Below, in pieces: positions 1-11,594 of a DNA stretch of 11,594 nucleotides (position 1 is its first letter; the number at the start of each line of letters is the position of its first letter). This DNA is from Oligoflexus sp. (GTDB taxonomy: Bacteria > Bdellovibrionota_B > Oligoflexia > Oligoflexales > Oligoflexaceae). The notes beneath the pieces are model-generated. The model was not told the origin of the DNA. It did no database searches and was given only the letters and a program-made list of their open reading frames with translations. The stretch is from contig JBGSTX010000098.1 of assembly GCA_041736305.1 (NCBI GenBank), forward strand, positions 1 to 11,594. Reading direction: 5' to 3'. The position numbers and the translations under genes were made by a program.

Positions 1-1301
1 CAGCCTTGGTGCTTTTCCACGATATCAAGTTTGCTCATGACCGTGTCGACCCACCACTGAGGATTCTTGTAGAGATCGCCATTGCGACCAGCGATAAACA
101 CTTTAGTCAGCTGTTCCTTGATTTTAGATCGAACGGCTGGAGTCAAGGTGTCTCCGGTGCCACCGCCTAAAGCTACGAAGCGAGAAAGAAGGAAACGACG
201 ACCGGCCTCACTGATTCTTGTGTTTTTCAGAGGTCCAAGAGTTTGCTGAGGATGCGCCGAGGCAACCGAGACTTCACAGCTTCTATCGCCGCGGAAAACG
301 CCTGTAGACAGCTTGTTCGCCCACGTTGCCATCGCAATATCGAGCTGCCTAGCATCGGTAAAATCAGTGCGGATGTCCCACGATAGACGAAAGCCACCCA
401 TCGTCGCCCCGAGATCATGAATTACGAGCCAAGCGGCATCGGGAGCACATTCAGTTTCTGACAAAACATTAGTGCAATATACCCGCTGATTGCCCTCCTG
501 ATTATCAACGTGAGAAATCATGGCGGCGAGAATCGCGAGCGCATGACGTTTAGCTAGCTCGTCGTCGACCTTGTCCGGCGGAAATGACAGCAGGCTTTTA
601 TCCATAGAGAGATCGTCTGCAAATGACCATCCCTCTTTTTTGGTCTCGACAACAACGATCGGCTCAGCAAATTTCCGTTCAATAACAGCTGGGGTATACG
701 AGGTCGATTGCTTCTTATCGACGAGGGATTTGACAAGGGCACGTGCCTTAGACTTATCGGCTTCGGAACCGTCGCGAGCCTTTTTAATCATCGACCAGAC
801 ATCTTGATCGCTCGGACATCCAATGCATTTCACACGCACTGAATAATAAGTGTCGGCGGGAAATCCTAAGAGCCAGAGCAGGCGCGAGCCCGCCGGTTCA
901 TTGTAAATTTCTGGATTATTCTTGTCGTATTTTATCTTTACGTTCTTTGCCACGACTTTGCCGGATTCATCGATTATGTTGCAGATGAATTTTGGCGACA
1001 AACCACTGGGCGGATCATCGAAGTTTTTATCAGAGAATACACAGTTGACGGTTTCGTCCCAGTCGAAATAGTCAAGTCCTTTTACAGCTCCCGCTGGCAT
1101 CTCGCCGTTTTTGATTTCCAGCTCACTCTTGGTACTAGGATTAGAAATTCCGCGGAAGACTTGGGCGCGGCTAACGAGCTCATTACGCTTGGTTTGGGGG
1201 ACATCAACGTCTGATGTTTCGGCCTTGTCTCCCTTTCCCGTAGATTTGCATGAGAAAACCAGACCGAGACTCAAAATGCCTAAAATCTTGCTAGCTCTCA
1301 C
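1..1301 (-). CDS. Predicted lipoprotein with atypical kinase-like fold (HipA/PI3K-like motif order); 3' end truncated by window edge
   Basis: Manual translation: GTG at 1301 with AAGGAG SD (1310-1315), open for 433 codons to the window edge. N-terminus MRASKILGILSLGLVFS-C (basic, hydrophobic, then Cys18). Motifs in order: SGLSPKFIC, VKIKY, EIYNEPAGSRLLWLLGFPAD, HVDNQEGNQR, VIHDLGATMGG. Absent from the ORF track because no stop lies in the window. Confidence 0.8.
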   Translation of the reverse strand, partial: MRASKILGILSLGLVFSCKSTGKGDKAETSDVDVPQTKRNELVSRAQVFRGISNPSTKSELEIKNGEMPAGAVKGLDYFDWDETVNCVFSDKNFDDPPSGLSPKFICNIIDESGKVVAKNVKIKYDKNNPEIYNEPAGSRLLWLLGFPADTYYSVRVKCIGCPSDQDVWSMIKKARDGSEADKSKARALVKSLVDKKQSTSYTPAVIERKFAEPIVVVETKKEGWSFADDLSMDKSLLSFPPDKVDDELAKRHALAILAAMISHVDNQEGNQRVYCTNVLSETECAPDAAWLVIHDLGATMGGFRLSWDIRTDFTDARQLDIAMATWANKLSTGVFRGDRSCEVSVASAHPQQTLGPLKNTRISEAGRRFLLSRFVALGGGTGDTLTPAVRSKIKEQLTKVFIAGRNGDLYKNPQWWVDTVMSKLDIVEKHQG

Positions 1302-1570
1302 AGATCCTACTCCTTCTGTGCGATTGATCCCCTTCCCATAGCCCTAGTCGTTATGCCTTCGCCGAAGCCAAGCATTCACGGAATGATTCCGCGGTGTTTT
1401 GCGATTTAGCCTTAGGGAAAATTTCTAAACGATCATACCTTATTCTAATGACTTGCAAAATAGATTCTTCCCCCTTCCGGATTTTATTGGAGAACTCCGC
1501 CCTCGCTAGGGTCGCACGGAAAATCTGCCGAGAAATGCATAGTTCGTGAACCCTAAAGGAGTTCGACCGG

Positions 1571-2131
1571 ATGAGAAAAAAGGCTGGCAAGAGTACCGAA
1601 AGTAAGAAGTTGAAGGACGCCGTGTCCGCTAACAAAACTCGAATAAAGAAAAAGCCACTTGCGGGAGTCCGCGACTGGGCAGGAGAAAAGATGCAATCGA
1701 GCAAGAGCTGGGTCCGCGGTACCAGCACCAAAGCGCGGGTAGCCTTTCTTTGTCTTGGCGTGATTGGATTAAGTGCGGGAGCCCTACCCTTTGTCGATTT
1801 AAAGGGTCCTATGGCCTCTCTCAACTCGCAGCTCACGACAGAGAATCAAAGCGACAAGCAGCCCGAAGTTAAAGCAGAAATGAAACACGCTAAAGGACAG
1901 AGTGAAAATTCAGCGGTAAAGGCCAGGGCCATAGAGACAGAGCCCAAATCTACGACCCGATTGAGTGCTGATAAGCCGAACAATTCGTTCACGAAAAAAG
2001 CTACGGTCAAAAGCAAGAAAGCCAAATCGAAATCTGCACTGCATGCCAAAAAAGCTAAGATCGAAAAGTCTAAGCTTGCGAAGCATAAAACCTTAAAGGG
2101 CAAACGATCATTAGCCGCTAAAGATAAATAG
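1571..2131 (+). CDS. Lysine-rich hypothetical protein with a single hydrophobic segment
   Basis: 186-aa ORF with AAGGAG upstream of ATG 1571 and an alternative ATG at 1691 preceded by AGGAG. One TM/signal-like stretch VAFLCLGVIGLSAGALPFV. 18 of the last 45 residues are Lys. A hairpin follows the stop. Confidence 0.75.
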   Translation: MRKKAGKSTESKKLKDAVSANKTRIKKKPLAGVRDWAGEKMQSSKSWVRGTSTKARVAFLCLGVIGLSAGALPFVDLKGPMASLNSQLTTENQSDKQPEVKAEMKHAKGQSENSAVKARAIETEPKSTTRLSADKPNNSFTKKATVKSKKAKSKSALHAKKAKIEKSKLAKHKTLKGKRSLAAKDK

Positions 2132-2153
2132 AATCTTGTTTTCTTTTCTTATT

Positions 2154-2182
2154 AGACCGGAGATCAGCATGATCTTCGGTCT
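2154..2182. terminator. Stem-loop between convergent genes, possible terminator
   Basis: AGACCGGAGATCA-GCA-TGATCTTCGGTCT forms a 13-bp stem with one G-U pair on the + strand, between stops at 2131 and 2204. The U-tract is weak. Confidence 0.55.
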
Positions 2183-2203
2183 TATCTCTATTGCCTATAC
2201 CTT

Positions 2204-3670
2204 TTAAACGCGGCGCATCAGTCCTGCGAAGTCGCGTTGCCCATCAAAATTCACCCCAAGCGCTTGCAGCAGAAGACTGTAGACATCAGCTTCTTCCATC
2301 TCTCTCCCTCTATCGGGATCGCCTGTGAGCGGATTGAAGCCATAGGTAAGGCCCGTACTCGTGTCGACGCCTCCATAGATGCGGTTGCCTTCGATGCGCG
2401 GCGAAATAAGCACGCTCCCGTTGTTGAGATGGTGGCCGCTCCCGATCCTAGTTTCGCGATCGCGTCCGAATTCAGTCGCAATATAGACGAGCGACCTATC
2501 CCAAATTTTGCCTTCCTCGGGCCTGCCGAGGTAGTCTTCTTCCTTAAGTAGTTGTATAAGTCGGTCGAGCGTCGAGAAGAGCCGCCGCCACATGCTGTTC
2601 TGAGCCCCTTGGTGATTGTTATGAGACCAGTCGAAAGCCAGGGGCAGATGAAGAATTTCCTTTTGCTCACCGACTTCTGTGAAGCGGACCAGGTCATCCA
2701 ATCCGAGCGTGACCGCAGCTGTAAGTCCGTAGCGGAAGAGCAGAAAAGCAAGCGCAGCCTGGGCTTCTAGAGGATCTGTCGCGTAAGCCGGAAAAACAGT
2801 CCGTACCTTCAGCAAGAGAGAGCCACGACTCGAATGGGCGTTAAGCGGAGGAGCTAGCCGCGCCTGGTCGAAGAACATGAGGGCCTCGAGCAGTTCGGCA
2901 GCTTCCAACTTGGGTATATTCTGCTGATAGCGCACGAAGTCGGCTAGCAAGGCCGACTCATTGTGCTTGGATAAGAACGTGCTATCGAGTTCCGCTCGTA
3001 CCTTCCGCGCAGCCGATAAGATTTTATCGTCAGCTCGACCTTCAATCCGCTGCTCGCGATGTAAAGCCAAGGGAAAGAGCAGAGCGTCCGCTACCGCTTC
3101 AGCTCTGGCGACGCGCGGCAGTTCAGGATCCGTGCCTGGCAGTCCATAGCCACCCATTCCCATGTTAATATTCGCCAGGAGCATTGATTGCCCATGGGCT
3201 GCTGCAGCCGCTTCCATCAAGGTCCGTCCACGGTTGATGCCGTTGCCATTAAGGGAACGTTGGGCTGCTATCAAGTGGTTGACGCTAGTCCCCGTATGCG
3301 TGATAACCGCTGCATCTCGCCCGTGCTTGCGCAAGAAGGTCCGCATTTCGTAGTTGGTATCGACCGGAACTCCCAGTTCATAGGGCACCGGTCGCACGCA
3401 AGCGAAGGCAGATCCAGCTTCGATATCAATTTCCGCCGCTGTGTAGCTGCGAATGCTTCGATTATTGTCAGAACCGAGCACAGGTAAGAGGGAATCGACT
3501 ATGCTGGCTCCTCCGTTAGCTGTCACGGCGATGAGCAGTTTTTCAGGGCGGACTCCGCGCGTTGAGACAGAAGAGCCGGCAGCGGCGCTGGCCTTGGCCT
3601 GATAAGCGCCCCAAAAACTCAGCCAGGCGGCGGTCTCTAACAGATGTCGGCGATCGAGCTTTTTACTCAT
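2204..3670 (-). CDS. DUF1501-family protein with Tat signal peptide
   Basis: 488 aa. N-terminal SKKLDRRHLL twin-arginine-like motif followed by an Ala-rich segment. Motifs NGGAS, FDWSH, VYIATEFGR, GHH and I-x-GNRIYG are typical of DUF1501 proteins. SD GAGGGGAG overlaps the upstream stop. Confidence 0.75.
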   Translation of the reverse strand: MSKKLDRRHLLETAAWLSFWGAYQAKASAAAGSSVSTRGVRPEKLLIAVTANGGASIVDSLLPVLGSDNNRSIRSYTAAEIDIEAGSAFACVRPVPYELGVPVDTNYEMRTFLRKHGRDAAVITHTGTSVNHLIAAQRSLNGNGINRGRTLMEAAAAAHGQSMLLANINMGMGGYGLPGTDPELPRVARAEAVADALLFPLALHREQRIEGRADDKILSAARKVRAELDSTFLSKHNESALLADFVRYQQNIPKLEAAELLEALMFFDQARLAPPLNAHSSRGSLLLKVRTVFPAYATDPLEAQAALAFLLFRYGLTAAVTLGLDDLVRFTEVGEQKEILHLPLAFDWSHNNHQGAQNSMWRRLFSTLDRLIQLLKEEDYLGRPEEGKIWDRSLVYIATEFGRDRETRIGSGHHLNNGSVLISPRIEGNRIYGGVDTSTGLTYGFNPLTGDPDRGREMEEADVYSLLLQALGVNFDGQRDFAGLMRRV

Positions 3671-3683
3671 GAGCGATCTCCCC

Positions 3684-4244
3684 TCAGAAAAATAGAAATT
3701 CCAGCTGTGAACCTACTGCAAGGCAGAGCGCCTGACTGAACATGGAGGCTTTCTCATCACCCAAGGCGGGGTCGTTAGCCAGTCCGAGTAGCGCTGCTTC
3801 CTCAGCAGGCAAAGGATCACGCACGAGAAAGCGCTGATAAAGGTCTCGAATCTGCTGAGCGATCGCGGGGCGATTGAGCTGGCTCAGCTTCTGCTGGAGC
3901 GGGTAGAAACGGAACACTGTAGGGGCTGCTCCTTCGCCGTCCCGGGCGATGCGATTGATGCAAGCGTTTAAGACGACTCGCTCAAAGGCGATGGCAGTGA
4001 GCTGCGAAGGTTCAGGCAAGGATCGATACTGCACGCGGGCAAAAGGATCATGGTCGCCTAGAGCGTAGAGATGCACATCCTTCAAGCAAGAGTATTGACC
4101 CAACTCGAGACAGAGCTCGTCGGCAGCTAGCTCGAGGGCCCGGCTTAGATCGCGTTCAAGAATCTGACTACGCTTCCAAATAAGTTCGGCCGCAGCTGCT
4201 TGGATAGAAAGCGAAAATCCTAGGAGAAAGAAAAGTATACGCAT
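3684..4244 (-). CDS. Secreted hypothetical protein (DUF1501/cytochrome c operon partner)
   Basis: Start reassigned to ATG 4244 (TGA-A-ATG coupling to the upstream stop, GGAGG upstream), giving 186 aa. Signal peptide MRILFFLLGFSLSIQAAAA. Four Cys. C-terminal helical LYQRFLVRDPLPAEEAALL segment. Confidence 0.75.
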   Translation of the reverse strand: MRILFFLLGFSLSIQAAAAELIWKRSQILERDLSRALELAADELCLELGQYSCLKDVHLYALGDHDPFARVQYRSLPEPSQLTAIAFERVVLNACINRIARDGEGAAPTVFRFYPLQQKLSQLNRPAIAQQIRDLYQRFLVRDPLPAEEAALLGLANDPALGDEKASMFSQALCLAVGSQLEFLFF

Positions 4245-4245
4245 T

Positions 4246-5628
4246 TCAGAATCTCCCTCCGAAACTTTGGGTTTCGACCATGGCGTGAATGAGTTTGTTG
4301 GCATTGTAGTTGAGCCCGGGCAGGCTCTGCCAAAGTTCGTCAAACTCGGCGAGCTGTGCTTGGGAACGGGGAGGATTGCCGAGCATGTAGGAATAGAGCA
4401 GCATAGTCAGATTTTTTTGAAAATCCTCGGACTGAACGGCTTTTTGTACCCACGCACCAAGATCAGAAACCGGCTCGCCAAAAAGATAAGCCCAGTTTTC
4501 CCACTGGGTAAATCCCGCATCGAAGCTGCCAACTGCTAGACGGCCGCCGCGGAGACCTACGTACGGAGCAAAGGCATAGGCAAGTGGATCGAGCGTGCTG
4601 TGGCAGAAGGCACAGGCCTCTTCCTTCACCCCTTTATTATCGACATCCCGAGGTTCGTTCGGGACCGGAAAGAGACCTTCGCTCCGAGCAATGTCGAGCC
4701 CGAGGTAAGCGCGATAAGCCTGCGAGGCCGTGTTACGAGGAAGCTCAGCAAACATGGTGTTGGTAGAGATGAACCACTGCGTCGTGATCATTCCATAGCG
4801 CTTGGCTGGTTCGAGAGGCTGGCCGTTTGCCACCGTGATCTTGCCTTCTATTTTCCGGTCCGGAATAGGTACCTCGATTTTTTCTCCGTTTGGGCCTATG
4901 TGATACTGAGCACTCAGCAAATCACGCATGTCGCGATCACCGCTCATAACATGCACGAAGAGCCGGTAGTCGTAACTATAGTCACCGATCACAAAGGGAT
5001 TGCCATCAACACCGACGGCGCGATTAGGCTTGATTTTGTCATCAGCAAGCCGCGGCAAGGCATCTTTCAACCAAAAGTCGCTGACTAGACACTTGTCGAG
5101 CGCACTGTGCAGCTCGATCTTTTGCTCCGCTGCGGATTTAGTTCTAAAGGCGACCAAATCTTGATAAGAGGGCGAGGCTCCGCAGAAGAGAAGATGAGCT
5201 CTTCTCCATGCCAGCTCTGGCTCGAAAGCAGTCTGATCAGAAGGCGGAGGCGGCATGGGACCCTGATCGGGTTTCGACAAATCGCTTCCTTCGGCAAGCT
5301 CCGTCTCATTCGTTCGCCCATCACCATCGCTGTCGATGGTGGCGATAGCACGCAAGCTTTCATCTAAATAACGACTGAAGGCAGCGGGGCTCTTATCGAA
5401 GTCGGCGAACGACCGCAGCTTTCGCGATAAGTCGCCACCGTAAAGGTTGAGAGTGGGAGGTGCCGTGTGACAAGTCTGACAGCTCGCCTGGCCGCTGCTA
5501 CAGGCAGGGGCCTCCGGATAGCTCGAGCAGAAGAGCGAGGCGTTGAGTGGAATGGCATTGAGTTGAGAAGCGAAGTTCGCAAATCCCAACACAAAGCCGA
5601 GGTACCAGAGCCTTGGGCGACTAGGCAT
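4246..5628 (-). CDS. Secreted diheme c-type cytochrome, DUF1588/DUF1585-like C-terminal part
   Basis: Likely start is ATG 5628 (AGAGG 9 nt upstream), giving 460 aa with a signal peptide. Two CxxCH motifs (CQTCH, CAFCH). The RYGMITT...CAFCHSTLDPL pattern resembles DUF1588. Acidic DSDGDGRTNETELAEGSD loop is Ca-binding-like. Confidence 0.75.
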   Translation of the reverse strand: MPSRPRLWYLGFVLGFANFASQLNAIPLNASLFCSSYPEAPACSSGQASCQTCHTAPPTLNLYGGDLSRKLRSFADFDKSPAAFSRYLDESLRAIATIDSDGDGRTNETELAEGSDLSKPDQGPMPPPPSDQTAFEPELAWRRAHLLFCGASPSYQDLVAFRTKSAAEQKIELHSALDKCLVSDFWLKDALPRLADDKIKPNRAVGVDGNPFVIGDYSYDYRLFVHVMSGDRDMRDLLSAQYHIGPNGEKIEVPIPDRKIEGKITVANGQPLEPAKRYGMITTQWFISTNTMFAELPRNTASQAYRAYLGLDIARSEGLFPVPNEPRDVDNKGVKEEACAFCHSTLDPLAYAFAPYVGLRGGRLAVGSFDAGFTQWENWAYLFGEPVSDLGAWVQKAVQSEDFQKNLTMLLYSYMLGNPPRSQAQLAEFDELWQSLPGLNYNANKLIHAMVETQSFGGRF

Positions 5629-5829
5629 AGTGTGCATCCTCTTTTTCATCTCATTTTTATGAGATCGCTGCTTGTTCAGCTTACAAAAACGAGAGATTTT
5701 CTTTGCAGAGTATACGTGAGTATCCAAAGAATTAAAGCGGCATTCTCGAGGGCAGCTTTAGAAGCGCTAGCCTTCTCTCGATATTTCACATCTTAGCATC
5801 GTTCTCTCCTCAGCTTCAGCTCTTCACTA

Positions 5830-5948: not shown

Positions 5949-6947
5949 CTAAACTTCGATGAAGAGTTTACCAGTGTTCTCACCTTTGAAGAGCATATTG
6001 AGGGCATCGGGCGCCTTCTCGAGTCCTTTGACGACGGTCGACTTATACTTGATCTTGCCTTCTTTCATCCATTTCGCCAGCTCGGCGGTTGCTTCGGGAA
6101 TCTTCTTGGCAAAGTCGAAGACGATGAAACCTTGCACCAGCACACGCTTCATGAGAATCAGCGAAAATCCTTTGGGACCAGGAGTCGGACGCTCGTCATT
6201 GTATGAAGAGATCATTCCGCAAAGCGGGATGCGCGAGAAGAGGTTGAGGCGCTTTAGAACTTCCTCGAGAGTCTCGCCTCCCACGTTTTCAAAATAAACG
6301 TCGATTCCCTTGGGACAGGTACGATCGAGCCCAGCTCCGATTGATTCTTTCTTGTAGTTGATGACTTCGTCGAAATGCAGTTCGTTCTTGAGCCAAGCAC
6401 ACTTCTCGTCAGAACCGGCGATACCAACGACGCGCGCTCCCTTTATTTTAGCGATCTGTCCGACAATCGAGCCAACCGCACCAGCGGCAGCAGAAACGAC
6501 TACTGTCTCTCCAGGCTTCGGTTTGCCAATTTCAAGAAGACCGAAATATGCTGTTAAGCCCGTCATCCCAATAGGTCCCATATGAGCATCGAGAGGTACA
6601 TCCAGATCAGGAAGTTTGCTCACTTGGCCCGCTGCCACCAAGGAATATGCCTGCCAACCAAGCAGTCCCGAGACCAAATCGCCTTCTTTGAAGAGAGGCG
6701 AATTACTCTTTTCAACCCGGCCTATACCCAAACCACGCATCACGTCACCAACCTGCACAGGCTCCATATACTGAGGCATGTCGCTCATCCAGATCCGATT
6801 GGTCGGATCGAGGCTAAGATATTGAACTTTGACGAGAAGCTGGTCCTTGCCAGGACTTGGTATGTCAGTCTCTGTCCACTGGAAGTTGCTCGAGGTGATC
6901 ATACCTTGGGGACGAACTTTGAGTTTCCAAGCTGGGTTCTTAGCCAC
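5949..6947 (-). CDS. NADP-dependent oxidoreductase, MDR superfamily (prostaglandin reductase / CurA-YncB-like)
   Basis: Start reassigned to GTG 6947 (AAGGAG upstream), giving 332 aa. Hallmark motifs YLSLDP, GMTGLTAYFGL, VVSAAAGAVGS, GIDVYFENVGG, CGMISSYN, GENTGK. Confidence 0.95.
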   Translation of the reverse strand: MAKNPAWKLKVRPQGMITSSNFQWTETDIPSPGKDQLLVKVQYLSLDPTNRIWMSDMPQYMEPVQVGDVMRGLGIGRVEKSNSPLFKEGDLVSGLLGWQAYSLVAAGQVSKLPDLDVPLDAHMGPIGMTGLTAYFGLLEIGKPKPGETVVVSAAAGAVGSIVGQIAKIKGARVVGIAGSDEKCAWLKNELHFDEVINYKKESIGAGLDRTCPKGIDVYFENVGGETLEEVLKRLNLFSRIPLCGMISSYNDERPTPGPKGFSLILMKRVLVQGFIVFDFAKKIPEATAELAKWMKEGKIKYKSTVVKGLEKAPDALNMLFKGENTGKLFIEV

Positions 6948-7086
6948 GTAGTTTTCTCCTTCGATTGAGTCCGAAATCACAAATCTCCTCCTTTTAGGCC
7001 GAAAGGCTCGAAGAAGCAAGTTTCCGCTCCCATAACTTAATATCAGGTTTTTTGTAGACTACACAAAGAGCAGACGCAGCCAAACG

Positions 7087-7113
7087 TAAAGTCACGAGCC
7101 AGTAAGCCGATCA
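7087..7113 (+). promoter_or_regulatory. Candidate sigma28 (FliA) promoter
   Basis: TAAA(7087-7090)-N15-GCCGATCA(7106-7113) versus the consensus TAAA-N15-GCCGATAA: one mismatch and exact spacing, directly upstream of the operon. Confidence 0.6.
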
Positions 7114-7162
7114 ACAAGCAGGCATGCTTAGTCAAAAATGTTCATGTGCGAGGACTGGTCGC

Positions 7163-8287
7163 TTGGTGTTCAACGCCAAAAAAAATTTGTCTGAAGAAAT
7201 TCTTGTTCATGATGACAGGGTGGATTTGTCACGTGCAAACTATAGTCCTGAGCTTTCTTCGACTAATCTAGACGCTGAGACACAAAGCTTTCACGTAACG
7301 ATAGACAGAGTCAGCTTCAAAAAGCCCGTCGATATAGTCACAACAGTCTTGAATGCCCATGGATTTGCGATCAATCTTGAGAACATACTCTCTTCCCTCG
7401 ACCAGTTCGTGCTCGGGGTCAAAGTAAAAATGCCAGAGAAAAGCCCCCAGGAAGGCCGCGTACTAGTTCGCAACTTCTTGCCCTGCGTGCACCTGACTAT
7501 GCCCAACAAGTCCAAGGTTGGCACCTTACTCAAGCTCTTTTACGCGGAAATCCAAGGCTACGAGCAAGAAATAGCCCGTCTCCAAGATGGGGAACTCAAA
7601 AAAGACGGCGAAAAGGTCAAATCCCGGGAACAGTTGCAAAAAGAAATTGAAAAGCTGAGCATCGAGAACAGCCGTCTGCAAAGCAAAGTCACCGATTTAA
7701 CGAATCAACTGACAGAAGCGCTGAAGTTTCAAGCCAACGCGAACCGGGCCTTGGCTTCGCAAAACATTATCCCACCGCAACTGCGCCTGGCTCAGGTTCG
7801 CGATATCATTTTTTCCGAACGATCGGTTCTCCTCCGTGCAGGCCGAACTAATATCAGTCTGCCTATGGCCCTGTTGGAAGCTCTGCCAAAGCCCGGGGAC
7901 ACGTGCCTCCTGAATGTCGTCGATGGGACGGCGCTTGGCGCCTTCTTCTACGAATCGCGGGGAGTCCCTTTTCTAAAGGATATGGCCGAAGTTCTCTCGG
8001 TCAGCTCCGAAGCGTGCAAAGTGAGAGATTCGCAGCGCAAGCAGCACATCCTCCGCGCCCAAAATGAAACTGAGAAGGAACTCTTCAGCTCCCTCAAGCG
8101 AGGGCAGAAGATCATATTGTATCGGGCTGAAGACCTCATTATCAAAGTCGACGGCGTCGGTTCAACGAGACCGCAAGAGTTCACCCGCGAAGTTCAAGAA
8201 CTGATCGCCCTATTTCAAATCGCCCATACCGCCGACGACAAGGGACTCGCTGAACCCCTCCACGTCGTGCGGGATGTAGAGGAGTAG
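7163..8287 (+). CDS. Cytoplasmic hypothetical protein with central coiled coil followed by two OB-fold-like beta domains
   Basis: ORF 7124-8287. The start is uncertain: TTG 7163 has GAGGA 8 nt upstream, while ATG 7124 has no clear SD. Heptad region SREQLQKEIEKLSIENSRLQSKVTDLTNQLTEAL, then IPP, then two beta-rich units ending PKPGDTCLLN and LKRGQKIILY. No TM segment or signal peptide seen. Confidence 0.75.
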   Translation: MVFNAKKNLSEEILVHDDRVDLSRANYSPELSSTNLDAETQSFHVTIDRVSFKKPVDIVTTVLNAHGFAINLENILSSLDQFVLGVKVKMPEKSPQEGRVLVRNFLPCVHLTMPNKSKVGTLLKLFYAEIQGYEQEIARLQDGELKKDGEKVKSREQLQKEIEKLSIENSRLQSKVTDLTNQLTEALKFQANANRALASQNIIPPQLRLAQVRDIIFSERSVLLRAGRTNISLPMALLEALPKPGDTCLLNVVDGTALGAFFYESRGVPFLKDMAEVLSVSSEACKVRDSQRKQHILRAQNETEKELFSSLKRGQKIILYRAEDLIIKVDGVGSTRPQEFTREVQELIALFQIAHTADDKGLAEPLHVVRDVEE

Positions 8288-8291
8288 ACCC

Positions 8292-9074
8292 ATGGAAGGC
8301 TTGAACTCGAAAAAATATCTGCACACCACCAAAAAGCGTTTCGACCCGATCGCGCTTGTGTTGAGCCTACTTGGGTTGGCCGGAGTCGTCTACGGCGTCG
8401 TCTATTCTGATGGAACCCAGTCTTACTACGATCTCCACAGCCTGCTCATCGTCATCTGCGGAACCTTTGCGAGTATTCTCTTCCAGTTCGATTTCGGCAG
8501 CAGCTTCTACAGCCTCTTGCTCGTTCTACGCTCCTTCCTCGGCACACCGGAGAAAAAGCTACTCAATACGATTAAAGAACTCGATGAAGCTATCATCCAG
8601 CAGCTGGACTTGAAGCAGATGCGAGAGGGCCTGCAGATCGATGGCGAAATCCTGAATGACATTGTCTTCATGTACAAGCGCGGTCTCCTCTTCGAAGAAA
8701 TCGATGAATTTGTCACAGCTCGGATCAGCGATGAGTATCTTGGCCGCCGCGTTGCCGTTGATCTCCTGAAGCGTGCCTCGGTGATTGCTCCTTCCCTGGG
8801 TCTCTTCGGAACAACCATGGGTCTTATCGGAGTTCTCCGCAACCTAGCCAATCCTGCAGAAATCGGTTCGTCGATGTCTCTAGCGCTCATGACTACGGCT
8901 TACGGAGCAGCGTTGAACTCCCTCTTCTTCACTCCCCTCGCCGGTCGCCTGGAACATCACAATATGATTTACCTCGAAATCCATCAGCAGCTCCTGAACA
9001 AAGTCGGGATACTGCTCGGACGTGATGAACGCAAGATCGGTGCCGCAGAAAAATCGGGAGGCATTGCAGCATGA
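8292..9074 (+). CDS. motA: MotA/PomA-like (MotA/TolQ/ExbB family) ion channel subunit
   Basis: 260 aa with GAGGAG SD. N-terminal TM pair with DLHSLLIVICGT. C-terminal APSLGLFGTTMGLIGVLRNLANPAEIGSSMSLALMTTAYG...FFTPLAGRL matches MotA/PomA TM3-TM4. Confidence 0.88.
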   Translation: MEGLNSKKYLHTTKKRFDPIALVLSLLGLAGVVYGVVYSDGTQSYYDLHSLLIVICGTFASILFQFDFGSSFYSLLLVLRSFLGTPEKKLLNTIKELDEAIIQQLDLKQMREGLQIDGEILNDIVFMYKRGLLFEEIDEFVTARISDEYLGRRVAVDLLKRASVIAPSLGLFGTTMGLIGVLRNLANPAEIGSSMSLALMTTAYGAALNSLFFTPLAGRLEHHNMIYLEIHQQLLNKVGILLGRDERKIGAAEKSGGIAA

Positions 9075-9730
9075 AGCTTGAGCAATTGCAGTCTAACGAG
9101 TCATCCGAGAGCGCGCTCTCGTCTTTTTACGTGAGTCTAGCCGATCTCATGACCCTGCTTCTCGTCTTCTTCCTCATGCTCGTCTCTATGAGCAAGATCG
9201 ATACCGGCTCGTACGAAGTCATTCGCAGTGGTTTCACCGGCTCAACCAAGAATACTCTGGTCGACCTGGCCGCTCGCCTGCGCAAGATGGTCGAGGACAA
9301 GCCTGGCATTCCCGGCGTGAAAGTCCATTTGGCCCCGGACGGCGTTCGCCTCGATCTCGATACGGGCGCACTTTTTGAAACGGGTAAAGCGAGCCTGAAG
9401 CCTGGCGCTTTAGACCCGATTTTACCGCTTCTCAGTGAGATTCTATCGACACCCTACATCATTGATGTCGAAGGACATACGGACGACCAGGCCCTGCGCC
9501 GCTTTTATAAAGTCGACGAGGAGAAAAATCTCGAAACCAACTGGTCGCTGAGTGGACGTCGCGCCAGCAGCGTCGTCCATCACCTCTTAGACCTGGGCTT
9601 CGGCGAACCGCGGGTCCGCCTGGTCGGTTATGCTAGCACGCGTCCACTTTCGAAAATAGAAGGCAAGAGCGGCGATGAGCTTACTGCCGCCCGCGCCGAA
9701 AATCGGCGCGTGTCCCTGCTCGTGAAGTAA
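9071..9730 (+). CDS. motB: MotB-like protein with OmpA-type peptidoglycan-binding domain
   Basis: 219 aa with ATGA overlap with motA. TM YVSLADLMTLLLVFFLMLVSMSKID contains the conserved ion-binding Asp. OmpA-like motifs LFETGKA, VEGHTDD, NWSLSGRRASSV, GYASTRP, NRRV. Confidence 0.9.
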   Translation: MKLEQLQSNESSESALSSFYVSLADLMTLLLVFFLMLVSMSKIDTGSYEVIRSGFTGSTKNTLVDLAARLRKMVEDKPGIPGVKVHLAPDGVRLDLDTGALFETGKASLKPGALDPILPLLSEILSTPYIIDVEGHTDDQALRRFYKVDEEKNLETNWSLSGRRASSVVHHLLDLGFGEPRVRLVGYASTRPLSKIEGKSGDELTAARAENRRVSLLVK

Positions 9731-9742
9731 AGGAGAACCAAA

Positions 9743-11594
9743 GTGGGTCTTATCCCTAAAGCAGCGAATGAAGCCGTCGTCTCCGTCAAGCACGGTAGAG
9801 ACGGCAAGTTTACTATACGGCGCAGCAGAAGCTCAGAAGGATACGAAGTCTTTGTCATCGAAAACATCTCACGAAATGAAAAGCTCAACATCCCGCGCGA
9901 ACTCTTTGATCGCTTTCGAGCCACGCTGCTCGAACTGAGCTTTCAGACGCCGAGCGATACCCGTCCCTTAGATAGAAAAATCTACTTCGAAGAGCTGGAT
10001 TACTACAGCATTCGACCGGCGCTGGGAGAAGCCCAGAAGTTCGTCGTCCAGGAACTCATCAAGCAGCCCGGCTCAAGCGGACTCCTGACGATCCCTCTCG
10101 AGGCTCTCGGCCCTTTAGCTAAAGCGCTATATCAGCCTGCTCTGCGGCACACCAGTGAAGTCTTCGATCGTATTCTCAGCTATCATAAGCTCTTTCACTT
10201 CTCCTTTACCGAAGGCAGTGAAAGCATCACAAGTGATCTGGCTATGCGCCGCGACGTCTTGTCCCAGATCGATGAATTCGTTCCAGCGATGCGCACGCGC
10301 GAAAGCGAAGGTCGCTGGTCGCCTGGGGAAGTTGGCGTTGAAGTCCTTCCACGCGAATCGGCGTCCAGCAAGGCTCAGGACAGTAAGAAGGATGGGTTCA
10401 GCAAATTCAAATCCAAGCTCGGCCAGAAAGATGGCCGCGAAGCTTATGAAGTCGACTATGGAGCCCTTTTCCAGAACGGCCCTGGCACAGTTCCCGAAAA
10501 ACTCCCGCGCGCCGCTTCGGACGAAACCAAACGCGGTGCGATCGCCAATGCCACGACTTTCCCCCTCCCTCTGCTGGCTGGGGATATCAAGTCGATGGCT
10601 CAGCTGCCGTTTCGCTGCGAACTCAACAAGGAGGAGGCAAGTTCTCTGCGGGAAAACTTCCTGCTTGATCGCAACTCCGAACTGTATCTGGGATTCGAGA
10701 TCATTGACGCGATCTTTCGCACACATAATAAGCTGAAAACCTATCGTTTTCCTCTCTACTACATGAAAGTCGTCATCGAAGAAGCGGGACGGTATATTCA
10801 CATCAGCCCCGCCCAGCATAAGCCTGAGATCTATCTGAACCATCTGGCTCTAGCCACTCTGGTCGAAAGCTTTTCCGCAGCCCGTCCCAACGGAGGCGAT
10901 CCGCTCGAAGCTTTTTTTGGAAACCTTCTCTCACAGAAGATCGAAGTTCGCGGACGGCTTGCAGAACTTCGCATTCAGCGCCTCTTGCCAGTAGCCGAAG
11001 ATATTTTCGACCGAGTCCGTGACCTCCTCTTAGGCCTTCCCGGCGAAAACGGGAAAGGCGGCATACTCGAAAGCCTCAAAGTCATCGGTCTCGAATGCGA
11101 TCTCGAGTCGGTGGCTCTTTATAAAGCGCAGAACCTGACCTCTCCCGTAACGCGGGCCTTGCATCAGGATATGGATCACATTCAAGCGATATCCGAAGAG
11201 AATCCTGAGCGCTTCTATCGTTCGCTCCTCGGCCAGTTTCTCTGCCCCGAGCTTCGCTCCAACTCCTCGGAGCCCTTCGCCGAGCAGGTGCTTTGTCCAG
11301 GCGCCGCTCCTAAGTCCACCAGAAAACTCCTCGATCGCCTAAATAAGAACGACCTGCTGCTGCTGGAAGGACCGCCGGGAACAGGCAAGACCTTTACAAT
11401 TATGAACCTCCTTCTCCACAGCATCAATGCAGGTAAGCGGGTTCTGATCGTCAGCGATCAGAAAGCTGCGATCCACGCCCTCGTTGAGAAAGTACAGGAG
11501 TACCTGGTCGGGCGGGACCTCAATTCCCCTCTCTCCAAAGCGAATCTAGCTCTCTTCCGCCAGTCGATCAAAGTGGTGGATCAGGTTCCCAATG
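9743..11594 (+). CDS. Large DNA2/NAM7 (Upf1-like) superfamily 1 helicase with long N-terminal extension; 3' truncated
   Basis: Manual translation: GTG 9743 with AGGAG (9731-9735) immediately after the motB stop, open for 617 codons to the edge. Walker A GPPGTGKT at 11369-11392 in the context LLLLEGPPGTGKTFTIMNLLLHSINAGKRVLIVSDQKAAIHALVEK (motifs I and Ia). The upstream ELYLGFEII...YRFPLYYMKVVI resembles the DUF4011-type segment. Absent from the ORF track. Confidence 0.88.
   Translation, partial: MGLIPKAANEAVVSVKHGRDGKFTIRRSRSSEGYEVFVIENISRNEKLNIPRELFDRFRATLLELSFQTPSDTRPLDRKIYFEELDYYSIRPALGEAQKFVVQELIKQPGSSGLLTIPLEALGPLAKALYQPALRHTSEVFDRILSYHKLFHFSFTEGSESITSDLAMRRDVLSQIDEFVPAMRTRESEGRWSPGEVGVEVLPRESASSKAQDSKKDGFSKFKSKLGQKDGREAYEVDYGALFQNGPGTVPEKLPRAASDETKRGAIANATTFPLPLLAGDIKSMAQLPFRCELNKEEASSLRENFLLDRNSELYLGFEIIDAIFRTHNKLKTYRFPLYYMKVVIEEAGRYIHISPAQHKPEIYLNHLALATLVESFSAARPNGGDPLEAFFGNLLSQKIEVRGRLAELRIQRLLPVAEDIFDRVRDLLLGLPGENGKGGILESLKVIGLECDLESVALYKAQNLTSPVTRALHQDMDHIQAISEENPERFYRSLLGQFLCPELRSNSSEPFAEQVLCPGAAPKSTRKLLDRLNKNDLLLLEGPPGTGKTFTIMNLLLHSINAGKRVLIVSDQKAAIHALVEKVQEYLVGRDLNSPLSKANLALFRQSIKVVDQVPN

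Follow-up and report, generated by a model that had tools for sequence, protein, structure and literature searches.

We describe here a four-gene cassette of Oligoflexus sp. (GCA_041736305.1, contig JBGSTX010000098.1, 11,594 nucleotides, hereafter the window), in which a MotAB-type stator pair is encoded together with a coiled-coil/tandem-OB protein and a large Upf1-like helicase of superfamily 1B (SF1B). The four genes form a strictly conserved, self-contained unit, and the cassette travels as a unit between distant bacteria. We consider the chances about even that it is a mobile, Zorya-like but independently built system which would be triggered at the cell envelope and act against invading nucleic acid, whether from phages or from mobile elements.

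A four-gene unit conserved across three phyla

The window is an entire contig of a 5.0-Mb genome assembled in 392 contigs. Positions 7124-11594 of its plus strand are filled by four co-directional open reading frames (ORFs), which encode the coiled-coil/OB protein (7124..8287; 387 amino acids from ATG 7124, or 374 from TTG 7163), the MotA-like A subunit (8292..9074; 260 amino acids), the MotB-like B subunit (9071..9730; 219 amino acids) and the 5' part of the helicase (9743..11594; GTG start, first 617 residues). The TTG start at 7163 has GAGGA 8 nucleotides upstream and is as plausible as the ATG at 7124. The TAG of the coiled-coil gene is separated from the ATG of motA by ACCC, a gap of 4 nucleotides; motA and motB overlap in ATGA; and between the TAA of motB and the helicase GTG at 9743 lies a 12-nucleotide gap containing AGGAG. 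ORF coordinates and junction sequences therefore agree with an earlier note on this DNA, which had described four co-directional genes with gaps of 4, -4 (ATGA) and 12 nucleotides; as it also stated, no flagellar or chemotaxis genes were found in the window. The helicase frame is open through the last base of the window and, because the window is a whole contig, this truncation is an assembly effect rather than biology. A promoter and terminator scan of 6800-11594 gave counts no higher than in shuffled sequence.

The order of the four genes proved to be strictly conserved across genomes. The arrangement coiled-coil gene-motA-motB-helicase was kept in 17/17 loci from 16 relatives in the window's order, and in 26/26 once nine loci from Gammaproteobacteria and Myxococcota were added. 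In named public records, where relatives' loci were located with a helicase alignment, all four genes were present in each of the nine loci with enough upstream DNA, and three more were cut by contig ends; four of these nine loci duplicate loci of the 26. Overall, the same four genes stood in the same order in 31 of 31 other loci with enough DNA, spanning three phyla and drawn from Oligoflexales, Gammaproteobacteria and Myxococcota. Loci with a helicase similar only in its core did not share this arrangement, since none of 68 carried the other three genes. No conserved fifth gene was found in the cassette loci, whose flanks differ; the operon stops with the helicase, beyond which the adjacent gene varies by locus and often lies on the opposite strand.

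The sizes and divergence of the families were also compared. With 138 matches (50%-identity clusters) among 1.84 billion representative proteins, the coiled-coil/OB family is of the same order of size as the helicase family, for which a search with the N-terminal region gave 127 clusters (90% identity), all in the same length class. Across the 26 loci the identities of the four proteins to those of the window co-varied (Spearman 0.68-0.81), a figure that is descriptive only, as the loci are related.

Judged by record titles, the nearest helicases came from metagenome-assembled genomes (MAGs) of Oligoflexus and other Oligoflexales, and the others from Teredinibacter sp., Gammaproteobacteria, Cellvibrionaceae and Myxococcota MAGs; Pseudobacteriovorax, Spartinivicinus, Exilibacterium, Gilvimarinus and Microbulbifer were further carriers in the records. 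Within the window's phylum, 43 of 131 genomes had the cassette, distributed by family as f1 15/21, f14 15/22, f5 4/4, f12 3/16, f13 0/12 and f19 1/33. Among sampled gammaproteobacterial genomes it was present in 4/301 of the order and 5/201 of the family of the Teredinibacter carrier.

Comparison of two congeneric genomes revealed a single common block of 6.7 kb, with 78% nucleotide identity and unrelated flanks on both sides, which starts 34 nucleotides before the first gene and ends 1 nucleotide past the helicase stop. The same pattern of a shared block with unrelated flanks was seen in two related Gammaproteobacteria. In a helicase tree of 28 sequences (quick maximum-likelihood IQ-TREE, with support from the Shimodaira-Hasegawa-like approximate likelihood ratio test, SH-aLRT, only), one gammaproteobacterial clade nested within Oligoflexales family f1 (SH-aLRT 98-100), while a second gammaproteobacterial clade and Myxococcota branched deeply. 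One genome, G017, has two full copies of the cassette on two contigs (L027 and L028), which fall in different clades of this tree. From the shared block with unrelated flanks, the nested clade, the two copies and the co-varying identities, we therefore conclude that the cassette travels as a unit between distant bacteria.

Repeats bracket the cassette at two loci, in L017 as inverted repeats of ~79 nucleotides (7262-7364 and 14481-14634) and in L125 as direct repeats of 158 nucleotides (5341-5496 and 14089-14245). No significant flanking repeat was found at the other examined loci, bar a weak 29-nucleotide match in L124. Flanking repeats were accordingly ruled out as a general insertion signature of the cassette, being present in only these three loci.

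The motor pair, the coiled-coil/OB protein and the helicase

The MotA-like protein matched Pfam MotA_ExbB (2.5e-16) and, over near full length, the NCBIfam models MotP (2e-24) and PomA (2.3e-23), with scores far below the curated cut-offs (86 bits against 394 for MotP; all equivalog stator scores fell below cut-off). Its only PDB sequence matches at E <= 1e-4 were flagellar MotA and PomA (~1e-15); no ExbB, TolQ or ZorA was matched in PDB at E <= 1, and no PADLOC ZorA model at E <= 0.1. As the earlier note had said, the A subunit, at 260 amino acids, is the size of a stator protein and lacks a tail. Across 15 homologues the transmembrane prolines P167 and P215 were invariant, and most of the cytoplasmic loop was invariant or nearly so. 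The window's genome encodes ten MotA/ExbB paralogues, and carrier genomes ~5-18 each; the cassette MotA is only 26% identical to its nearest paralogue in its own genome.

The MotB-like protein has one transmembrane helix with Asp25 (nucleotides 9143-9145), a plug, a short linker and a peptidoglycan-binding domain of the OmpA type, and matched Pfam MotB_plug (1.7e-11) and OmpA (1.2e-8). Matches to NCBIfam MotD, MotS and MotB (7e-30 to 2e-21) were below cut-off, and those to the PADLOC ZorB models (2.8e-16 to 2e-7) were weaker than the flagellar ones (best 7e-30) and indicate a MotB likeness at superfamily level. Invariant in 18/18 sequences were D25, E134-G-H-x-D138-D139, N157-W158, R164 and N211-R-R-V-S215.

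By sequence, then, the motor pair is of flagellar type and not of ZorAB type. As read from the alignments, the stator keeps every residue needed for ion-driven rotation and for peptidoglycan anchoring (the Asp, the plug, the prolines and the residues of the OmpA-type domain), and MotA and MotB should assemble into a 5:2 stator unit that is driven by ions, anchored to peptidoglycan and of the PomA/MotP-like flagellar kind. Like flagellar MotAB, PomAB and MotPS, the pair has an A subunit of stator size that spans the membrane four times, with its prolines conserved and a long loop on the cytoplasmic side, and a B subunit that combines the invariant Asp with a plug and an OmpA-like domain. The parts of the PMC12505986 survey drawn on here characterise flagellar-type stators (the 'FIT' group) by the same traits, namely an OmpA-like domain, a torque interface and a plug joined to a linker. 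Unlike these stators, the cassette pair is always linked to the helicase and the coiled-coil/OB protein, is deeply divergent in both its sub-cut-off NCBIfam scores and its distance from the nearest paralogue in its own genome, and occurs also in genomes that have no FlhA or flagellin match.

This last difference was established in five cassette-carrying genomes (86-96% complete, two of them single-contig), in which FHIPEP (FlhA) and Flagellin_N were each matched in 0/5, whereas both were matched in four known flagellates that served as controls. Because these five carriers lack FlhA and flagellin matches, we conclude that the cassette MotAB is not a flagellar stator; the ordinary flagellar stator that the earlier note had named as its counter-explanation is at odds with this result. 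The window's genome does encode FliG.

Separately, FliG_C domains (42-48 bits) were observed inside unusually long open frames of 800-890 amino acids, at G000:C90:14567-14887 (G000 is the window's genome), G014:C63:8130-8450, G034:C1:60387-60704 and G006:C1:985472-985789. The same genomes also have FliG genes of normal size.

The first protein of the cassette belongs to no Pfam, PADLOC or NCBIfam family. Its AlphaFold model (predicted local distance difference test, pLDDT, 78) comprises a conserved N-terminal alpha/beta domain (~residues 22-125), a coiled coil of ~80 residues (~134-212) and two OB/cold-shock-like barrels (~217-280 and 282-345). The model, together with Foldseek and VIA-align, thus supports the coiled-coil/OB protein that had been proposed from the letters of the DNA. 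The top Foldseek matches were to the coiled coil and double OB of Mpa/ARC (E 2e-4 to 1e-3), and VIA-align returned OB, cold-shock-domain and EF-P matches at Z 6-8, which are generic OB matches. The likeness to the N-domains of the proteasomal ATPases Mpa, ARC and PAN lies in two OB barrels placed immediately after a coiled coil; in contrast to them, the cassette protein has no AAA+ module, and template-modelling (TM) scores were low, at 0.13-0.17 on the query. Invariant residues concentrate in the N-domain (L76, G80, N84, E86, N87, P127, G133 and Y140), for which an ESM Atlas feature search gave no usable match. Full-length members of the family are all 330-450 amino acids long and none is fused to another part.

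The helicase fragment of 617 amino acids matched Pfam AAA_11 at residues 531-586 (3.2e-8) and was modelled with a pLDDT of 82.8 and a predicted TM-score of 0.79. It begins with a predicted Pur-alpha-like domain (residues 7-141, nucleotides 9761-10165, plus strand), which is followed by a disordered linker carrying a conserved FK.KLG...VDY..LF motif (~nucleotides 10397-10477, plus strand, ~residues 219-245), a beta domain with stalk helices (~residues 270-500) and then the RecA1 domain, with the Walker A sequence GPPGTGKT at residues 543-550 (nucleotides 11369-11392, plus strand). Pur-alpha-like domains are of a kind that binds single-stranded nucleic acid. The match of residues 7-141 to 3k44_A is to the Pur-alpha repeat I-II fold (VIA Z 13.2, root-mean-square deviation 3.2 A, 126/145 residues), with the next unrelated VIA rows at Z ~5 and a Foldseek E of 5e-4; it is a likeness at the level of the predicted fold, and no Pfam sequence family was matched. 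Within the low-confidence linker, L226 and F243 of the conserved motif are invariant in 78 sequences, and the motif looks, from its sequence, like a docking peptide.

Full-length relatives of the helicase measure ~1,390-1,460 amino acids and have an insert of ~450 residues between Walker A and Walker B. Walker A, D-x-A-x-Q, VVGDD.QT, DEH.RCP and GAGAALQGKER were invariant in 17 sequences; in a set of 78, Walker A was invariant and the later motifs were at least 90% conserved. AAA_11 and AAA_12 were matched in 17/17 sequences (best 1.2e-17 and 6e-6, respectively), and the family profile matched IGHMBP2 (8e-10), Sen1, Upf1 and Dna2 in the PDB, which upholds the earlier assignment to SF1 helicases of the Upf1/DNA2 kind and narrows it to SF1B. 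Clusters of the family are annotated only as 'AAA domain-containing' or 'hypothetical'.

Partial matches of the helicase core to PADLOC and NCBIfam models were found for MkoC (1.6e-24), PDC-S37 (7.3e-24), ProA (4.7e-20), MkoA (1e-17) and Hhe (4e-10). The helicase shares with Mokosh MkoA/MkoC, Hhe, PDC-S37 and ProA an SF1B core whose Walker A and Walker B are separated by a large insertion. The matches cover only this motor core, however, and lie far below the curated cut-offs (70.7 bits against 1500 for ProA, 59.8 against 2000 for Hhe), whereas the N-terminal 530 residues with the Pur-like domain, linker and beta domain are confined to the cassette family, and none of the Mokosh, Hhe, PDC-S37 and ProA systems contains MotAB. 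On the basis of these profile matches, the helicase is a member of the Upf1-like superfamily that falls in none of the named defence families.

The earlier note had also asked whether the missing C-terminus carries a nuclease, such as a Vsr-like one. Relatives supplied the full length, and the last 209 residues lay near MTES_1575/DUF559 clusters in an ESM Atlas feature search (score 0.94). This language-model lead to a Vsr-like nuclease was not confirmed by hidden Markov models (HMMs): Pfam at E <= 1 gave no MTES_1575/DUF559 or other C-terminal-domain match in 17/17 helicases, in four carrier genomes with a full-length helicase, PF18741 did not match that protein (the copy in the window's own genome ends before the C-terminus), and an HMM built from the C-terminal domain found nothing in the 68 other helicase loci.

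Candidate functions of the cassette

To our knowledge, Zorya is the only described system that couples a MotAB-superfamily ion motor to nucleic-acid enzymes. As described in the parts of PMC11946911 drawn on here, phage invasion is sensed by the peptidoglycan-binding proton motor ZorA5B2, which brings in effectors with DNA-binding and nuclease functions. Zorya types I-III (ZorAB with ZorC/ZorD, ZorE or ZorF/ZorG) resemble the cassette in having a 5:2 peptidoglycan-binding motor of this superfamily, in placing it in one operon with cytoplasmic nucleic-acid-acting proteins that include a large helicase, and in their mobile, patchy distribution. They differ in their parts: the A subunit of the cassette, at 260 amino acids, has no coiled-coil tail and no PADLOC ZorA match and is flagellar-type by its PDB matches; its helicase is SF1B and Upf1-like, whereas ZorD is SNF2-type; and its coiled coil resides on a separate protein that also bears OB barrels. 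Models of ZorC, ZorD, ZorE, ZorF and ZorG matched neither the coiled-coil protein nor the helicase, either as the window fragment or as a full-length relative. The 'Zorya-like logic, non-canonical parts' put forward earlier calls for a correction: the motor is flagellar-type (PomA/MotP-like with a MotB plug) and not ZorAB-type. Any likeness to Zorya would lie in how the system works, not in common ancestry.

In flagella, the cytoplasmic face of MotA pushes on FliG. We infer that the conserved cytoplasmic face of the cassette MotA would engage the cassette's own cytoplasmic proteins in place of FliG. Its first partner may be the coiled-coil protein, through the N-terminal domain that is its most conserved part, with the two OB barrels forming a tail, or it may instead be the helicase linker motif; the motor would then engage the ~1,450-residue SF1B helicase either through the coiled-coil protein or directly. 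On the model of Zorya, the motor might be unplugged when the envelope or peptidoglycan is disturbed where phage or plasmid DNA enters; once active, it could recruit the helicase or switch it on close to the membrane, and the coiled-coil/OB protein would serve as an adaptor or as the 'tail' that the A subunit lacks. The helicase would translocate 5'->3' on the single-stranded DNA or RNA of the invader, displacing or unwinding nucleic acid, and would degrade it if the C-terminal domain is a nuclease. A co-fold of MotA, the coiled-coil protein and helicase residues 1-300 (interaction prediction score from aligned errors, ipSAE, 0.01) speaks neither for nor against binding.

A role in defence is suggested by the patchy, mobile distribution, the two copies in one genome and a helicase core like those of Mokosh, Hhe and PDC-S37, with Zorya as a precedent. 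The proposed system as a whole also draws on the strict linkage of the four genes, the carriers without flagellar matches, the conserved motor residues, the intact helicase motifs, the Pur-alpha-like fold and the two OB barrels. None of the models in PADLOC, NCBIfam or Pfam accounts for the whole four-gene system, in line with the candidate undescribed system of the earlier note, and our literature search turned up no paper on a MotAB cassette that includes an SF1/Upf1-like helicase; the supplementary MotAB-neighbourhood tables of PMC12505986, which lay outside that search, might list the family. Several observations weigh against defence. Proximity to defence islands, which the earlier note had asked to be tested, was not observed: the 137 proteins flanking the 26 loci are mostly housekeeping, with ABC transporters, peptidases, metabolic enzymes, DnaK and DNA polymerase A as the commonest Pfam families, and PADLOC gave only generic matches to them (OmpA taken for ZorB, ABC proteins for mad3, a NERD domain). 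The six neighbouring ORFs of the window had no PADLOC match, and a tblastn search of plasmid and phage collections with the N-terminal 617 residues of the helicase returned nothing. The contact partner of MotA is pure conjecture, and the MTES_1575/DUF559, Vsr-like nuclease is a lead only. The cassette is, moreover, common in some Oligoflexales families (f1 15/21, f14 15/22, f5 4/4), a prevalence that also fits a lineage-specific physiological role.

Such a role would be the handling of nucleic acid at the membrane, as in DNA or RNA uptake, scavenging, a transformation-like route, tethered repair or RNA surveillance, with the stator providing energy or a cue for localisation. Besides the high prevalence in these three families, it would account for the housekeeping flanks and missing defence neighbours, for the strong conservation of a helicase of uniform length across phyla, and for the Pur-like and OB domains, which are predicted to bind single-stranded nucleic acid. 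We nonetheless regard it as unlikely, given the very sporadic occurrence in Gammaproteobacteria (5/201 and 4/301), contexts that differ between congeneric genomes, interphylum transfer with two copies in one genome, and the absence of any linked pilus, competence or secretion gene from the 26 loci. More improbable still is an envelope machine, with the stator doing mechanical work unrelated to nucleic acid (gliding, movement of surface proteins or division) and the helicase serving as a regulatory or scaffolding nucleoside triphosphatase. Precedent comes from AglRS, TolQR and ExbBD, listed in the parts of PMC12505986 drawn on here as non-flagellar 5:2 motors that drive gliding and envelope processes, and the many MotA/ExbB paralogues of carrier genomes (~5-18 each) would suit it; yet all helicase motifs are kept (invariant or at least 90% conserved), two of the three cytoplasmic modules have predicted nucleic-acid-binding folds, and the cassette has no conserved partner in the periplasm or outer membrane.

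A selfish mobile element that has the cassette as its working part, with the helicase and its possible nuclease domain serving transfer or insertion, has a very low probability in our view. It would explain a discrete block with unrelated flanks and the repeats seen at a few loci (the ~79-nucleotide inverted repeats of L017 and the 158-nucleotide direct repeats of L125). However, such repeats occur in only three examined loci, the 25 commonest Pfam families in the flanks include no integrase, transposase or relaxase, and no copies were found in the plasmid or phage collections; we also know of no role for a peptidoglycan-anchored stator in transposition. Closest of all to refuted is a spare flagellar stator, a MotAB/PomAB paralogue that happens to lie next to unrelated genes. 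The PomA/MotP-like MotA, the plug and OmpA domain of MotB and the FliG of the window's genome would be expected of one, and are outweighed by linkage to the other two genes in 26/26 loci across phyla, by the five of five tested carriers without FlhA and flagellin matches, and by a MotA that shares 26% identity with its genome's nearest stator paralogue and scores far below every NCBIfam cut-off.

If the cassette is indeed an envelope-triggered system against invading nucleic acid, it would be a second solution, of independent origin, to the coupling of a motor to nucleic acid, with a minimal tail-less stator, a separate coiled coil and a helicase of another superfamily. Its comparison with Zorya would then reveal what motor-coupled sensing cannot do without. 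The boundaries of the cassette are unusually clear for a motor-coupled nucleic-acid system. A further step, which we put forward tentatively and with less confidence than the system itself, is that a stator of flagellar type has left the flagellum and become coupled to a nucleic-acid motor, which would be a first non-flagellar job for such a stator and a second motor-coupled immunity, invented independently of Zorya. In its boldest form, the coiled-coil/OB protein would mechanically transmit rotation of the MotA ring to the helicase or its nucleic acid, with ion flux directly gating or powering the work on DNA or RNA at the membrane. The cassette also challenges the view, expressed in the parts of PMC12505986 drawn on here, that stators with the flagellar trait set are confined to flagella. 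The hypothesis is directly testable in cultured carriers, namely Teredinibacter, Microbulbifer, Gilvimarinus, Exilibacterium, Spartinivicinus and Pseudobacteriovorax.

Other genes around the cassette

In three genomes of the window's genus, a protein with a nuclease-related domain (NERD; Pfam 3.2e-17) is encoded divergently just upstream of the cassette (L015:15356-16405, L024:4833-5855 and L030:4458-5399); the window has an oxidoreductase gene there instead. Of the seven other window ORFs scanned, six had no Pfam family and the remaining one is this zinc-type oxidoreductase. On the minus strand, five consecutive ORFs of 433, 161, 488, 219 and 493 amino acids occupy positions 3-5727; they belong to no Pfam or PADLOC family, and none recurs beside the cassette in the fetched loci of relatives from other genomes. 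Their sole NCBIfam match, a weak one below cut-off, is that of the 493-residue ORF to 'diheme GEGP'.

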